Shown in pieces: positions 45,584 to 50,618 of a stretch of 64,000 nt of DNA. Within the stretch, counting starts at the first letter, position 1. Every line of letters begins with the position of its first letter. The translations under genes were made by a program, and so were the position numbers. The DNA comes from Chloroflexota bacterium (GTDB lineage Bacteria; Chloroflexota; UBA11872; VXOZ01): contig CATQHC010000003.1 in assembly GCA_958295775.1 (NCBI GenBank), positions 91,419 through 155,418 of the forward strand, read 5' to 3'. The notes below the pieces were generated by a model. That model was not told the origin of the DNA and searched no databases. It was given only the letters and a program-made list of their open reading frames with translations.

Positions 45584-46654
45584 TCAATTTTCCTCGATTC
45601 CAATGGGATGGGGTTCTTTGCCTAGAATTTCCACATATGTAGAAGGCACCGACAGATTCTTGACCAAGAATTCGACCCATTCGTCAGTATAGATGTAGTC
45701 TTTGTGTGGTTTGTCATATTGGCAGAATCTGGGATTCGTTATCGTGGGAGCTGTGGCATTAGTAGCTGGCCTAACTTGGTAGAATTTCCAACAAACCGTG
45801 TGATCATTGATCCTAAACCTGTACCCGAGCTTAGCTTCTACCTTACGCACTACGTCACCTGGCTTCATTTCTCCAGGATGAGCTACCGGAGTTTCACGTG
45901 TCTTGATCAGAGTTACGAACCTCTCGTACTCACTTCTCAATTCGTCATTGAGATCCTCAGGTTTGATGAATTCGACAGCTGCATCAGAGGATTTGGCACG
46001 GTTTGCAGGTTTGGGAATGAGAAACACCCTGAAACTATATTCCATGCTTTGCTCAGTGTCCGTAGATAAACCACTACGGAATCGCTCCACATAGTCCATA
46101 ACCGACGAATAACTCTTGCTCTGTAGTGATCTAAGTGCCTCTAGCTTTTTCCTTGGAACAACGGTTGAGAACTGAAGCGACACGGTTAGGCTTTCATTGA
46201 GTGCGTATTGGTCACCAAACTCCTCGCTCAGAAGTGCTTCAAAGTTCAATAGGAGTGCCTGGCATTCACCGAAAATCCGATCATCAAGGTGAGGCATGTT
46301 TCGGTGTTCTATCTTGTTCCTTAGTCCAATGAAGAACTCCAAATTCCTACGTGCTGGCGGGTTTTCGTCCTTGTAGAACTGACGCAAGCACTCTTTGAGT
46401 TCCCATGCCTTTTTGTCCCCATCCACCTTCTTGTATCGGACATACCTTTTAGTCCTTATTCTCGTGTAGAACGGTTTGACACGGTCTCTGAGAAAGACTG
46501 CATGGAATAAAGATGTCCAAGCTATAACCATCAATACTATGTATGCACCAGACCTAAAGGCGGTTTCCGGTCTGTTATAGCATCCAACAGCGAGCAGAGC
46601 AGACTCTCTGGCCTTCTCCAGGCAAGCTTTGACGTCACGGGGCAGCCTTTTCAC
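45584..46654 (-). CDS. DUF3644-family HEPN-like protein (lower-GC insert)
   Basis: KARESALLAV..YNRP, IAWTSLFHA, WELKECL and LRNKIEH (RNxxxH) motifs. Confidence 0.8.
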   Translation of the reverse strand: MKRLPRDVKACLEKARESALLAVGCYNRPETAFRSGAYIVLMVIAWTSLFHAVFLRDRVKPFYTRIRTKRYVRYKKVDGDKKAWELKECLRQFYKDENPPARRNLEFFIGLRNKIEHRNMPHLDDRIFGECQALLLNFEALLSEEFGDQYALNESLTVSLQFSTVVPRKKLEALRSLQSKSYSSVMDYVERFRSGLSTDTEQSMEYSFRVFLIPKPANRAKSSDAAVEFIKPEDLNDELRSEYERFVTLIKTRETPVAHPGEMKPGDVVRKVEAKLGYRFRINDHTVCWKFYQVRPATNATAPTITNPRFCQYDKPHKDYIYTDEWVEFLVKNLSVPSTYVEILGKEPHPIGIEEN

Positions 46655-46911
46655 AACGACCCTCTCCCGTCTCAGTGAGAATTGGGATTAGCTGGATTCC
46701 ATCGATGCTGATTGACGATGATTACAAGTAGAATGCTATACTCTATTGTCCCTCACTAGCAATGACATTGCTCAATTCACACTCGGCCTGCGTTCTTGGC
46801 ATTTTCTTGCAAAACACATAGTCTAGAGACAGGAAGGCTCGATATTCAATGCGGGCGAATGACGTTCAAGAAGCTTACACAACACGGTATGGTAGCTTTG
46901 GAAGCTCTATC

Positions 46912-47559
46912 ATGATCGCGATAATTGACTACGGCGCGGGGAATCTGCGCAGCGTCAGCCGGGCGGTGGCGTTGTACACGCAGGACTATGTGGTAACGCA
47001 GGACCCGGCTGATGTAGAGCGCGCCGCGGCGGTGATTCTGCCCGGCGTGGGCGCGGCGGGTGATACCATTCGCGGGCTCGAGCGGCACGGCATGACGGAA
47101 TTGGTGAAGGAGACGATTGCCTCCGGCAAGCCCTACTTCGGCATCTGCATGGGGTTGCAGGTCTTGCTGACTGAGAGCGAGGAGGACGGCGGCACGCCCT
47201 GTCTGGATATCTATCCAGGCACCGTGCGGCGCTTTCCCAAGGGGCTCACCGTGCCCCATATGGGCTGGAACCAGGTGCGCCAGGCCCAGGCGCATCCGAT
47301 GTTCGCCGGCGTGCCGGACGAAGCCTATTTCTACTTCGTGCACTCGTATTACACCGATCCGGACGACGCTACGCTGACGGCCGGCGCCACCGACTACGGC
47401 GTCACGTTTCCCAGCGTGCTGGCGCACGAGAACGTGTTTGCCACCCAATTTCACCCGGAAAAGAGCGCTGCCATGGGCCTGCGGCTCTACGCGAATTTCG
47501 TGGCGTGGGCGACGGGAGTAAAGTCCCGCGTGCAAAGTGGCGCCCATACTGAACCTTAG
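46912..47559 (+). CDS. hisH: Imidazole glycerol phosphate synthase glutaminase subunit
   Basis: IIDYGAGNLRSV, GICMGLQ, PHMGWN, YFVHSY and QFHPEKS motifs. Confidence 0.96.
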   Translation: MIAIIDYGAGNLRSVSRAVALYTQDYVVTQDPADVERAAAVILPGVGAAGDTIRGLERHGMTELVKETIASGKPYFGICMGLQVLLTESEEDGGTPCLDIYPGTVRRFPKGLTVPHMGWNQVRQAQAHPMFAGVPDEAYFYFVHSYYTDPDDATLTAGATDYGVTFPSVLAHENVFATQFHPEKSAAMGLRLYANFVAWATGVKSRVQSGAHTEP

Positions 47560-47619
47560 CCAGTCCCGGGGCTGCGGAATGTCCGCGGCTTGCCCGAGAC
47601 GGTAGGAGTTCTTTGCGCT

Positions 47620-47940
47620 AAAGAGCGGGAGACAAGCCCCAACGTTGTCGCGTTACAAGGAAAAGGCAATCACAAGGGTGTCCTGTTACGCATTGACAAA
47701 CGCGGTTGTAGGGGCACGACATGTCGTGCCCCTACGTGACTGCAAGGAAGTCTTGACCCCTCATGGCAATGCGTAGTCCCACGATTGTCCCACGTGAACG
47801 GTAATGCGACAGCATTGGGGACAAGCACCCGCGCTACGACGCATCGATGAGGGTCAAATGCTATACTGTCGTTTTCGCAAGATGAGAGCGGCGTACACGG
47901 ATTGACTCAAGAGGGCCGCAGGTTGCAAACCTGCGCTACC
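47620..47940. repeat. Cluster of mixed REP palindromes between hisH and hisA
   Basis: Family A (47708), family C (47917) and GGGGACAAGC...CGCGCTAC-type units, related to those at 59172 and 63814. Confidence 0.75.
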
Positions 47941-48008
47941 GGGATGTGAAAGGCCGAACGTGCAGGACGCCGCAGCGCAAGCGGCGCGCAGGCCGATAAC
48001 AAGCAAGA

Positions 48009-48734
48009 ATGATTGTAATTCCCGCCATAGACATCAAAGACGGCGCGGTGGTGCGCCTCTATAAAGGCGATTTCGGCCAGAGTACGGTCTTCTCCCACGA
48101 TCCGGTAGAAACCGCCCTTGGTTGGGAGGAGCAAGGCGCCGCGTTGCTCCACGTGGTAGACCTGGACGGCACCGAGAAGGGCGGCAGCCGAAACCTGCCG
48201 GTGGTGGCAGCCGTTGCGGACGCGCTGAACATTCCCGTGCAGATGGGCGGCGGCTTGCGCGATCTGGCCGCCATTGAACAGACGGTTGCCGCGGGGGTGG
48301 ACCGGGTCGTGTTGGGCACGGTGGCGCTGGCGGATCCCGCGCTGGTGGCCGAAGCGTGCGCGCGTTACCCCGGCCGCGTGGTGGTGGCTTTGGACGCCCG
48401 CAACGGCAAGGTAGTGACCCACGGCTGGCAGCAGCCAAGCGACGTTGACATGTTCGTTCTGGCGCAACAGATGGCGGCGGTCGGCGTCAGCCGCTTCCTT
48501 TACACCGACGTGGAACGCGACGGCACGCTGAGCCAGCCAAACTTCGCGGCCACTGCGGCGCTCGCAGAGGCCGTGAGCGTGCCCGTAATCGCCTCCGGCG
48601 GCGTGGCGACGCTGGACCATCTCACACGGCTGGCAGGGCTCGGCGTGGAAGGGTCTATCGTCGGCTCCGCGCTCTATCGGGGCGCGTTCACGCTGCCCGA
48701 AGCGCTGGCGGTGGTGAGCAGTGAGGGACAATAG
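48009..48734 (+). CDS. hisA: ProFAR isomerase
   Basis: IPAIDIKDGAVVRL, LHVVDLDG, GGGLR, YTDVERDG and IASGG motifs. Confidence 0.96.
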   Translation: MIVIPAIDIKDGAVVRLYKGDFGQSTVFSHDPVETALGWEEQGAALLHVVDLDGTEKGGSRNLPVVAAVADALNIPVQMGGGLRDLAAIEQTVAAGVDRVVLGTVALADPALVAEACARYPGRVVVALDARNGKVVTHGWQQPSDVDMFVLAQQMAAVGVSRFLYTDVERDGTLSQPNFAATAALAEAVSVPVIASGGVATLDHLTRLAGLGVEGSIVGSALYRGAFTLPEALAVVSSEGQ

Positions 48735-48869
48735 AGGACGGTCCGGTAGCCTTGTGTCACTCCTTCTGTGTCAGAACGGTCGATCAGGATGCGGAATCGT
48801 TGTGGGAAAGTTTAGCCGGAGCGGACACCAATGGCGCACAAGGGGAACTAGACTACAGCCTATTTCCCC

Positions 48870-48898
48870 TTGACATTTTTGCTCCTAATTGCTAGTAT
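48870..48898 (+). promoter_or_regulatory. Strong sigma70-type promoter
   Basis: TTGACA(48870-75)-17 bp-TAGTAT(48893-98) with extended -10 TG. Confidence 0.75.
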
Positions 48899-48902
48899 CT
48901 AG

Positions 48903-48963
48903 ATACAACCCCTATCGCTTCGCCGGTAGGGTGGAGACCGCTCTCAGAGCGGTCTCTGTCTTT
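48903..48963 (+). ncRNA. Candidate short structured RNA/leader: two hairpins, the second terminator-like
   Basis: CCCUAUCG-CUUCGC-CGGUAGGG (48910-48931) and GAGACCGCUC-UCA-GAGCGGUCUC-UGUCUUU (48934-48963). Confidence 0.5.
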
Positions 48964-48986
48964 AAGATGGCCAGATGGAGTGTCAA

Positions 48987-49619
48987 GTGAAGACCAACGT
49001 CTATGTTGACGGTTTCAATCTCTACTACCGCGCGTTACGGGACACGCCATTCCGATGGCTCGACCTCCGTAAACTGGCGCAGACGCTTTTTCCGCAAGAC
49101 ACGATCAATCAAGTCTGTTACTTTACCGCATTGCTTGATGCGCGTCCGAATGACCCTGGTCAACCTCGGCGGCAGTTGGTGTACTTGAGAGCGCTAGCAA
49201 CCCTGCCGAACCTTGAGGTCTACTACGGTACCTTTCGTTCGCGAACCAAGCACCGCCCGCTGGTCAACCCAATAGCGGGTATGCCGGGTGTGGTTAGAGT
49301 AAGAGATTCGGAGGAGAAGGGGTCTGACGTGAATCTCGTAACCAGGCTATTGGTTGACGGGTTTAGAGGCCGGTATGAACAAGCTGTTGTAATATCCAAC
49401 GATTCAGACTTTGCAAGTGCCTTACATTACGTGCGAGATAGCTTGCACCTGCGCGTAACGGTTGTGAATCCCGATCGCAAGATTAGAACGCACAAGGACC
49501 TAAAGGCCGCGGCAACGTACATCAAAAGGCTCTGGAAGAGTCATTTGCGGCAAAGTCAGTTTCCTCTTACGCTGACCGACGCGCACGGCACCATCAGAAA
49601 ACCGCCTAGCTGGGCATAG
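48987..49619 (+). CDS. NYN (PIN-fold, LabA/DUF88-like) ribonuclease
   Basis: VYVDGFNLYY, EEKGSDVNL and VISNDSDF with acidic catalytic residues intact; GGAG RBS before GTG 48987. Confidence 0.9.
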   Translation: MKTNVYVDGFNLYYRALRDTPFRWLDLRKLAQTLFPQDTINQVCYFTALLDARPNDPGQPRRQLVYLRALATLPNLEVYYGTFRSRTKHRPLVNPIAGMPGVVRVRDSEEKGSDVNLVTRLLVDGFRGRYEQAVVISNDSDFASALHYVRDSLHLRVTVVNPDRKIRTHKDLKAAATYIKRLWKSHLRQSQFPLTLTDAHGTIRKPPSWA

Positions 49620-49844
49620 GTGCAACTTAGGACATACCCCCGCAGTACGAAGTCGCCACTGAACTGACGTCCGCCAACAGCCCGCAATATTTTCCCCTTA
49701 AGGCCGGTGTGACGCCCTGAATGTCGTCCATTACTATGGTGGTAGGTAGGGCAAGATTGTCGAAGACTTTCGTAGGCCAAGCTATGCGTGAGTCCGAGTT
49801 CACGTAGTTCGTGCCGTTTCAAGCAACGAAATGATGTAAGAAGT

Positions 49845-50618
49845 ATGCTCACCACACGTATCATTCCCTGTCTCGACGTCCATCGCGGCCGCGTGGTGCG
49901 GGGACAGCAGTTTTCCGCCGATAAGGACGCCGGTGACCCCATCGAGTTGGCTGTGCGCTACAACGAACAGAGCGCCGACGAGTTGGTTTACTACGACATC
50001 ACCGCCTCGGCGGAGGAGCGCGGCATCTTTCAAGATCTCGTGGAGCGCACCGCCGACCAGCTCTTTATACCCCTCACCGTCGGCGGCGGCATTCGCACGC
50101 CGCAGGACATGCGCCGCATGCTGCAAGCCGGCGCGGACAAGGTCTCAATAAATACGGCGGCGGTGGACAACCCCAACCTCATCAACGCCGGCGCTGAGGG
50201 CTTCGGCAGCCAATGCACCGTGCTCTCCATGGACGTGAAGCGCGTGCCTCAAGCCGACGGTACGATCAAGTGGCATGTCTTCACTCACGGCGGCCGCCGC
50301 CAAACCGACGGTGAAGCGGTTCCCTGGGCTGTCGAGGGCGTGGCGCGCGGCGCGGGCGAAATCGTGGTCAACAGCATCGACGCCGACGGCACCCTGGCCG
50401 GGTACGACCTGGAACTCCTGGCCGCCGTGTGCGCCGCCGTGGACGTGCCCGTGGTCGCCAGCGGCGGCGGCGGTACCCTGGATCACCTCTTCGACGCGCT
50501 CGACAAGGGGCACGCCCATGCCGTGCTTGCCGCTTCGATTTTCCACTACGAACACTTCACCGTGCGCGACGTGAAGGAGTACCTGGCGGCCAAGGGGATC
50601 CCCATGCGCCTATCCTAG
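49845..50618 (+). CDS. hisF: Imidazole glycerol phosphate synthase cyclase subunit
   Basis: RIIPCLDV, PLTVGGGIR, GADKVSIN and SIDADGT motifs. Confidence 0.96.
   Translation: MLTTRIIPCLDVHRGRVVRGQQFSADKDAGDPIELAVRYNEQSADELVYYDITASAEERGIFQDLVERTADQLFIPLTVGGGIRTPQDMRRMLQAGADKVSINTAAVDNPNLINAGAEGFGSQCTVLSMDVKRVPQADGTIKWHVFTHGGRRQTDGEAVPWAVEGVARGAGEIVVNSIDADGTLAGYDLELLAAVCAAVDVPVVASGGGGTLDHLFDALDKGHAHAVLAASIFHYEHFTVRDVKEYLAAKGIPMRLS

Follow-up and report, generated by a model that had tools for sequence, protein, structure and literature searches.

A conserved two-hairpin RNA gene linked to NYN-domain nuclease genes: a candidate type III-like module between hisA and hisF of a Chloroflexota bacterium

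What do a promoter, a short structured RNA and a nuclease gene do between hisA and hisF of a bacterial his operon? The question is raised by a stretch of 64,000 nucleotides (nt) from a Chloroflexota bacterium (contig CATQHC010000003.1 of assembly GCA_958295775.1, positions 91,419-155,418 of the forward strand), which is called the window here and whose own numbering is used throughout. A preliminary description had proposed that this unit is a new module resembling toxin-antitoxin (TA) systems of type III, in which an RNA neutralises a ribonuclease. We find that the unit contains a small RNA gene with its own promoter, a conserved two-hairpin structure and a putative terminator; that this gene is linked, nearly without exception and in three orientations, to genes for NYN-domain nucleases; and that the active site of the nuclease is intact. 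The RNA is very probably a dedicated partner of the nuclease that acts in trans. On balance we lean towards a new module of type III-like design, whose RNA would bind the NYN nuclease and hold it in check, a reading drawn from the comparison of sequences.

Promoter, RNA and nuclease in the window

The unit stands out from the operon by its base composition, with a GC content of 0.52-0.53 over promoter, RNA and NYN gene versus 0.65-0.69 in hisA and hisF. Its near-consensus promoter, located where the preliminary description had placed it, consists of a -35 element TTGACA (48870-48875), a 17-nt spacer that includes the extended TG (48890-48891) and a -10 element TAGTAT (48893-48898). It is the sole promoter-like site in 47400-50000, for which shuffled sequence averages 0.7 sites. 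From a conserved A (48905), its predicted start, the RNA runs through a C-rich 5' end into hairpin 1; a short junction then leads to hairpin 2, which has a U-containing tail (Table 1). Both hairpins, as first drawn, are borne out by the fold of 48898-48995, which has a minimum free energy of -39.8 kcal/mol (z score -3.2) that none of 200 shuffled sequences reached. The stem of hairpin 2 (48933-48957) is made of 10 perfect pairs and one G-U pair and is followed by UGUCUUUAA. The longest T run after hairpin 2 has a mean length of 3.1 in the clade of the window versus 4.0 in other clades, and in the window's clade hairpin 2 is probably a leaky terminator. A pseudoknot that had been considered between the loop of hairpin 1 and a downstream GUGGAG finds no support: in relatives the loop is a UUCG-type tetraloop with a variable closing pair, and the supposed partner lies inside the stem of hairpin 2.

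Table 1. Features of the unit between hisA and hisF and of the flanking his genes. R1 and R2 are covariance models built from 29 close copies of the RNA (alignment A1) and from 77 matches (alignment A3), respectively; aa, amino acids; bp, base pairs; E, expectation value.
Feature	Positions	Strand	Remarks
hisH	46849-47559	+	
hisA	48009-48734	+	Pfam His_biosynth, E 9e-81; upstream flank, outside the module
Sigma-70-type promoter of the small RNA	48870-48898	+	score 10/12 with extended -10 TG
Small RNA gene, about 60 nt	48905-48965	+	full-length match to R1 (78.4 bits) and R2 (67.0 bits)
Hairpin 1	48910-48931	+	8 bp, CUUCGC loop; CCC/GGG base kept across phyla, middle covaries
Hairpin 2 and tail UGUCUUUAA	48933-48965	+	GC-rich, intrinsic-terminator-like
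GGAG ribosome-binding site	48977-48980	+	6 nt ahead of the GTG start; read from the sequence
NYN-domain nuclease gene	48987-49619	+	210 aa, GTG start; PADLOC HEC-09 family
hisF	49845-50618	+	Pfam His_biosynth, E 8e-77; downstream flank, outside the module

The open reading frame (ORF) behind the ribosome-binding site matches Pfam NYN (PF01936) with E 1.7e-10 and 42 bits, against a gathering cut-off of 24.2, and its homologues begin at the codon equivalent to the GTG at 48987. It is also a full-length match to the PADLOC family HEC-09 (E 8.7e-37, residues 4-209 against profile positions 5-202 of 203). The acidic motifs reported earlier hold throughout the family: none of the 71 aligned homologues departs from D8, E109, E110, D114, D139 and D141. 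This alignment (A6) leaves out nine loci with early stops or with matches starting ahead of the true start codon, as well as L034, which has the same upstream sequence as L032. An AlphaFold2 (AF2) model of the protein has a predicted local distance difference test (pLDDT) score of 94, and its best Foldseek matches are 2qip (VPA0982, E 5e-9) and NYN domains of MARF1 (E 6e-7); a search of solved structures with the protein sequence gave nothing under E 0.05. The protein is thus predicted, from sequence and model, to be an NYN/PIN-like nuclease with an intact acidic active site. Its family comprises at least 7515 protein clusters at E <= 0.001 among 8000 candidates scored. The genome of the window encodes seven Pfam NYN-domain proteins, of which that of the window is the sole member of the RNA-linked family; no R2 hit lies close to the NYN subfamilies at the six other places.

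Conservation and separate transcription of the RNA

The RNA was followed through 80 homologous loci (L003-L082), which are the best 80 of at least 541 matching genome stretches and hence not a random sample. Partial hits on the reverse strand (model positions 30-54, the palindromic hairpin 2) were left out of all counts. The two-hairpin element was seen in the 150-170 nt upstream of NYN in close Chloroflexota relatives, and a related form occurs in Acidobacteriota, Actinomycetota, Pseudomonadota, Verrucomicrobiota, Gemmatimonadota, Deinococcota, Saccharibacteria and others. Searches with R1 gave full-length matches in most loci, and R2 found a full-length RNA in the window and at every locus but one (79 of 80), so that 80 of 81 sources contain the RNA. 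The lone miss, L059, is a contig of 2899 nt that ends 23 nt past the NYN gene.

All copies conform to one consensus. It opens with a conserved A and a C-rich start. In hairpin 1, which comes next, the base is CCC/GGG, the middle covaries and the loop is usually of the UUCG type; a 3-nt junction leads to hairpin 2, which has a GAG/CUC base and a covarying GC-rich upper stem and is followed by UGC and a U run. Of the cells in the alignment fitted to the model (19 pairs, 73 distinct sequences), 94.0% are standard pairs, compared to 36-51% in a control in which the 3' partners were slid by 1-3 columns. Double-sided changes were found in 18 of the 19 pairs (197 cells), including all ten pairs of hairpin 2, and none of 500 shuffles reached any of the observed measures. 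Such an alignment is biased towards the covariance model. As a control, MAFFT and RNAalifold were applied to 26 diverse copies (among them minus-strand, plasmid, prophage and orphan ones) and returned the same two hairpins with 15 of 17 pairs kept through double changes. The conserved and covarying upstream structure by which the initial proposal was to be judged therefore exists. Since U-G and G-U pairs are frequent, only the promoter-bearing strand makes sense as the RNA.

The search of Rfam 15 that had been suggested found no relevant family, neither in 47400-50000 of the window at E <= 1 nor in 10 diverse homologous loci at E <= 0.1, where there was no hit. The only hit in the window is a human internal ribosome entry site model on the other strand (47546-47651, E 0.26), which was dismissed as not relevant. 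It is well supported by these comparisons that the RNA represents a new family with no counterpart in Rfam 15.

The pattern of conservation also narrows what the RNA might do. It has no variable single-stranded region, all variable positions being in stems, which makes a guide role unlikely. The conserved nucleotides are grouped at the bases of both helices and in the junction, not in loops or tails, as would suit a protein-binding surface. A subclass of the RNAs (L036, L037, L039, L047, L050, L057, L058 and L084) has in hairpin 1 a recurring internal loop, GUA opposite GAA, that is reminiscent of loop-E or sarcin-ricin-type motifs.

The RNA and the NYN gene are not always arranged as in the window. 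Among the 80 RNA-bearing sources, 69 (window included) have the RNA upstream of NYN on the same strand, with a median of 8 nt between it and the edge of the NYN match. Eight have it downstream on the opposite strand in a convergent arrangement (L046, L053, L055, L062, L065, L077, L079 and L081, mostly Actinomycetota), 4-23 nt from the NYN stop codon in seven of them and 364 nt from it at L062; three have it upstream on the opposite strand in a divergent arrangement (L061, L068 and L071). Beyond these sources, the convergent form is seen in a prophage of Mycobacterium, prophiGD43A-1 (E 1.6e-20), and on a plasmid of Paenarthrobacter (E 2.6e-16). Most of the 77 copies underlying R2 are preceded by -35 and -10 hexamers, the latter mostly ending 6-9 nt ahead of the conserved first A, and this includes minus-strand copies, some with good promoters (e.g. 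TTGACG-16-TATAAT). The same conserved structure in three arrangements argues for a separate small-RNA gene and against a leader that acts solely in cis. In the same-strand form there is no room for an NYN promoter, which suggests that NYN is expressed there only through read-through.

Asymmetric loss, amplification and the role of the RNA

If RNA and nuclease form a pair, losses of either partner should be informative. In the genus of the window (17 genomes), the family profile identifies 18 full-length NYN genes in 16 genomes, and by coordinates all 18 have the RNA about 20-85 nt upstream, although these genomes are kin and not independent. The RNA by contrast often occurs alone, with orphan copies in 13 of the 16 other genomes of the genus. 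The genome of the window itself has a second copy 40 kb beyond the window (G000:C3:195438-195499, corresponding to L084 1501-1562; E 6e-15), which sits between a 256-aa ORF of unknown function and hflX with no NYN gene. The 256-aa ORF was considered as an NYN relative and rejected (no Pfam family, hhalign probability 0.1), and a further weak R2 hit in this genome (C8:62537, 22.9 bits) was dropped because it looks like an ordinary terminator. At the same hflX site, two relatives (G002 and G004) have the RNA followed by an intact NYN gene (L131 and L133), which indicates that the orphans were once parts of complete modules. Five other genomes yielded 24 RNA hits, of which 18 are next to an NYN gene or its remnant and six are orphans. 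One genome may contain several paralogous RNA-NYN modules. Broken NYN genes beside an intact RNA were found at L092, G037:761185, L021 and L030.

The orphans are heterogeneous. The promoter of the hflX orphan looks eroded in the window's genome and in G007, and the orphans L115 and L118 look degenerate, with no U tract and an altered junction. Others (L084 and L098) follow a gene on the same strand in a terminator-like position. Orphans may either be selected, as immunity against addiction, as terminator of the upstream gene or in another role, or the NYN losses may be recent. An NYN gene never found alone next to an RNA that often is alone would be the pattern expected of a poison-antidote pair, which is indirect evidence.

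The RNA has also been multiplied. Seven loci contain two or more full RNA units, which have promoter-like hexamers of their own where they are part of the 77-copy set. On the 4.6-kb mobilisable Escherichia coli plasmid CP057030.1 (L122 577-716), four tandem hairpin-1 units with a period of 29-33 nt, including a compensatory change between units, are followed by a single strong terminator and NYN; this four-unit form is present in 17 plasmid records. The preliminary description had noted the lack of tandem repeats like those of ToxI, which is correct for the window but not for these relatives. From the array, the functional unit would seem to be hairpin 1 together with its C-rich 5' flank. Speculatively, the A-rich linkers between the units of CP057030.1 could be cleavage sites if NYN processes the array. 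At L037 (1009-2996), three small ORFs (105, 95 and 225 aa) separate a first RNA copy (1009-1076) from a second one, behind which NYN follows; this may reflect an insertion between two RNA units or another partner of the RNA.

The module also occurs on mobile elements. Plasmid records with the NYN family number 439, of which 207 are from Klebsiella, 55 from Xanthomonas, 45 from Escherichia and the rest from others. On E. coli plasmids of 3461 bp, NYN is one of three annotated genes and almost the sole cargo; the RNA lies just upstream (E 2.5e-9), at a site for which the RefSeq annotation of the plasmid gives no RNA feature. In prophage prophiGD43A-1 the module is located between integrase and repressor. 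Plasmid homologues from Klebsiella and Xanthomonas, though just 30-33% identical, are arranged alike: a consensus promoter, a C-rich/G-rich hairpin and a strong terminator precede NYN. Two of them, L141 1080-1190 (Klebsiella) and L142 1040-1165 (Xanthomonas), have a larger, diverged hairpin 1 with AUUAAGUU inside, and may by their sequences represent a sister class that R2 scarcely detects. More distant NYN proteins on Cupriavidus and Xanthomonas plasmids (H53, H68 and H66), annotated as Xre/MbcA/ParS toxin-binding antitoxin or 6-hydroxy-3-succinoylpyridine hydroxylase, are fusions of NYN to a DUF2384-type domain and another tie of NYN to TA biology.

How could such a pair work? For binding, inhibition, toxicity and trigger, we infer the following course. 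The small RNA would be made from its own near-consensus promoter and mostly end at hairpin 2, while NYN, in the arrangement of the window, would be translated from read-through transcripts only, leaving the RNA far in excess of NYN mRNA. Acting in trans as a ligand of the protein, the RNA would bind NYN through its conserved hairpin and junction bases and keep the active site off cellular RNA, as type III RNA antitoxins do. Should the supply of RNA fail, through plasmid loss or because a phage shuts off transcription, free NYN would cut RNA and growth would stop.

Several observations weigh against this mechanism. An RNA with GC-rich stems and stable tetraloops may be long-lived, which fits poorly with a labile antitoxin. 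The terminator that should keep NYN low is weak in the window: the U tract of hairpin 2 is interrupted, and for this reason a simple terminator scan left the hairpin unlisted. Genome G007 retains two RNAs, one of them directly upstream of hisF (L109), with no NYN of the HEC-09-type RNA-linked family, and G050 has two NYN paralogues (36-39% identity) with no RNA hit. Over the RNA span, and only there, the hflX orphan is 93-98% identical in seven genomes of the genus; its flanks do not align, and the adjacent proteins are 81-86% identical. Such conserved orphans suggest that the RNA may have a function independent of NYN. HEC-09, tested with its putative native promoter region, gave no protection from the tested phages in E. 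coli (Payne et al., bioRxiv 10.1101/2024.01.29.577857). Finally, the homologous loci are the best-matching part of a larger set.

Alternatively, the RNA might be not an inhibitor but an obligate subunit, e.g. scaffold, activator or specificity factor, of an RNA-protein enzyme, and the two would jointly act on some target. Linkage, covariation and independent transcription are equally expected for a subunit, and the very stable design of the RNA suits a permanent one. Furthermore, HEC-09 could be cloned, and the accessible text of the preprint makes no mention of toxicity (bioRxiv 10.1101/2024.01.29.577857). However, the RNA offers no variable single-stranded segment for the choice of targets, and mutual dependence predicts the loss of either partner, whereas the RNA outlives NYN and NYN is never alone. 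The amplification of RNA units likewise fits titration better than stoichiometric assembly. We regard a subunit role as unlikely, though it is the most probable of the alternatives.

Still less probable is that the RNA has a cellular role of its own, for example as regulatory small RNA, or by terminating the gene upstream of it or stabilising the 3' end of that gene, and that NYN is its processing or turnover enzyme or a selfish traveller. The orphans are what speaks for this idea: they are strongly conserved over the RNA span only, are present in most genomes of the genus including G007, where no NYN of the family is left, and several trail a same-strand gene as a terminator would (L084 and L098). 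Against this stands the occurrence of the RNA at 79 of 80 NYN loci in very different contexts, down to plasmids of 3.4 kb, which shows it moving with NYN and not with any host gene. In addition, relatives have an intact NYN at the orphan site (L131 and L133), and some orphans look degenerate (L115 and L118).

A leader or attenuator that only limits NYN transcription in cis, the fallback named in the preliminary description, is very improbable. Read-through must indeed set the NYN level in the 69 same-strand sources with their short gap, but the 11 convergent or divergent sources, along with the prophage and plasmid examples, combine the same structure with a promoter of its own, and both extra copies with own promoters and orphan copies exist. 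Hardly credible at all is a type I-like antisense RNA pairing with NYN mRNA: the convergent RNA gene abuts the NYN stop codon, where read-through transcripts could overlap, but across the 80 loci the duplex energy is -53.3 kcal/mol versus -52.4 kcal/mol for the reversed-sequence control, the best pairing sites are spread out over the mRNA, the RNA has the same sense as NYN in 69 sources, and its conserved nucleotides lie at helix bases instead of in loops or tails.

Returning to an RNA that restrains the nuclease, a broader version is conceivable, which we put forward tentatively and with less confidence than the module itself: a phylum-spanning class of type III-like TA or defence systems, in which NYN would be held by the two-hairpin RNA or by hairpin-1 arrays and orphans would be selected as immunity against NYN-bearing plasmids and phages. 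If true, this would be the first RNA-antitoxin system with a toxin of the PIN superfamily and possibly among the most widespread, given at least 7515 protein clusters and 439 plasmid records. A structured RNA joined to an NYN nuclease in at least 10 phyla would connect the fields of RNA antitoxins and PIN toxins. It would also supply a working hypothesis on what a very large NYN family of bacteria does; in the accessible part of a 2017 survey of the PIN superfamily, bacterial PF01936 groups are entered as "function unknown" (PMC5499597). As the module is present on E. coli plasmids of 3.4-4.6 kb, the hypothesis is directly testable.

Surroundings of the module and relation to known systems

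No protein accompanies the module consistently, in line with the earlier remark that a protein antitoxin gene is lacking. The 79 upstream neighbours fall into 72 Pfam families and the 78 downstream neighbours into 73, ruling out a conserved protein partner among them; neighbouring ORFs were chosen by a longest-ORF rule, and some are spurious. Mobile-type neighbours are integrases, TrwC relaxases and resolvases. PADLOC assigned HmaA (3 of 79 upstream), HmaB (1 of 78 downstream), AriA (2), AbiLi (2), GajA, PsyrT, PbeC and a SAVED effector, and many of the remaining neighbours are housekeeping genes. In the preprint that defined it, HEC-09 itself is presented as an NYN protein situated inside Hma systems (Payne et al., bioRxiv 10.1101/2024.01.29.577857).

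Within the genus, the RNA lies upstream of hisF in the window, in nine of nine other genomes compared and in a near relative (L003), and it is followed by NYN in all of these except G007. In BLAST comparisons with same-genus loci, the NYN region has about 74% DNA identity in four genomes (68-94% overall), and the adjoining hisF stretch has 87-90% where aligned separately. A repeat or mobile DNA element was ruled out for the window's genome, in which both a 256-nt region and the protein are single-copy by BLAST.

Two other parts of the operon were inspected. Immediately upstream of hisH, a second insertion of low GC content (about 0.46) on the minus strand (45584-46654) encodes a 356-aa DUF3644 protein (Pfam E 1.6e-52) that matches the PADLOC candidate PDC-S19 (E 4e-139). 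Together with the HEC-09 match, the his operon of this genome thus contains two candidate defence genes. The 450-nt spacer between hisH and hisA (47560-48008, GC 0.55-0.59) has no plus-strand ORF of at least 50 aa, just two short minus-strand ORFs (50-52 aa) and one terminator-like hairpin (47589-47606), and a search with R2 found no RNA copy in it.

How does the module relate to systems already described? Like ToxIN, CptIN and TenpIN, it combines a promoter, a structured RNA, a putative terminator and a predicted ribonuclease gene with no protein antitoxin. As in type III systems generally (PMC8860590, PMC13682666 and PMC12283969), some members have tandem RNA units, namely the four units of about 30 nt on E. 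coli plasmids, and the settings include plasmids, prophages and defence islands. The putative terminator between RNA and NYN consists of a conserved hairpin 2 and U tract, the latter interrupted in the window, and does not apply to the 11 convergent or divergent cases. Unlike in type III systems, the window and most loci have a single RNA unit, and the RNA gene can be convergent or divergent; a single unit with its own 5' end and terminator would not need processing by the toxin. The nuclease also differs, having a predicted NYN/PIN-like fold, whereas the nucleases of ToxIN, CptIN and TenpIN have a ToxN-type fold. Of the type III-like proposal, layout, lack of a protein partner and genomic contexts fit, but membership in the ToxN, CptN or TenpN families does not, and because the protein stands outside these families the module would be type III-like by mechanism only.

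Effectors other than ToxN that are controlled by an RNA without repeats or with another organisation are known. AvcID, in which the small RNA AvcI accompanies the deaminase AvcD, has been described as type III or RNA-regulated (PMC10511110), and AbiF-type HEPN loci are another example (bioRxiv 10.1101/2025.04.15.648962). Both differ from the present module in that the effector is a deaminase or HEPN protein, not NYN, and the RNA is unrelated. In the accessible parts of the literature found, the partners of RNA antitoxins are ToxN-type nucleases, the deaminase AvcD and the HEPN protein AbiF, and our literature search found no report in which an NYN protein is connected with an RNA partner or with RNA antitoxins. 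HEC-09, although of the same protein family as the NYN of the window, was presented as a single-gene candidate, and its main-text description in the preprint, where the terms "non-coding" and "ncRNA" do not appear, has no partner RNA (bioRxiv 10.1101/2024.01.29.577857). Handling it as a single gene leaves the RNA component as a possible reason for the negative test.

On the protein side, the module resembles VapBC PIN toxins, MARF1, LabA and VPA0982 (2qip), with which it shares a PIN-like fold and conserved acidic residues. VapC toxins are neutralised by a protein antitoxin, and to our knowledge PIN-like nucleases are known as toxins only together with protein antitoxins. Module loci, unlike those of VapBC, have no conserved antitoxin protein gene. 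Compared with the known RNA-antitoxin systems, the novel element would thus be, pending experiments, an RNA partner combined with a PIN-like NYN nuclease.

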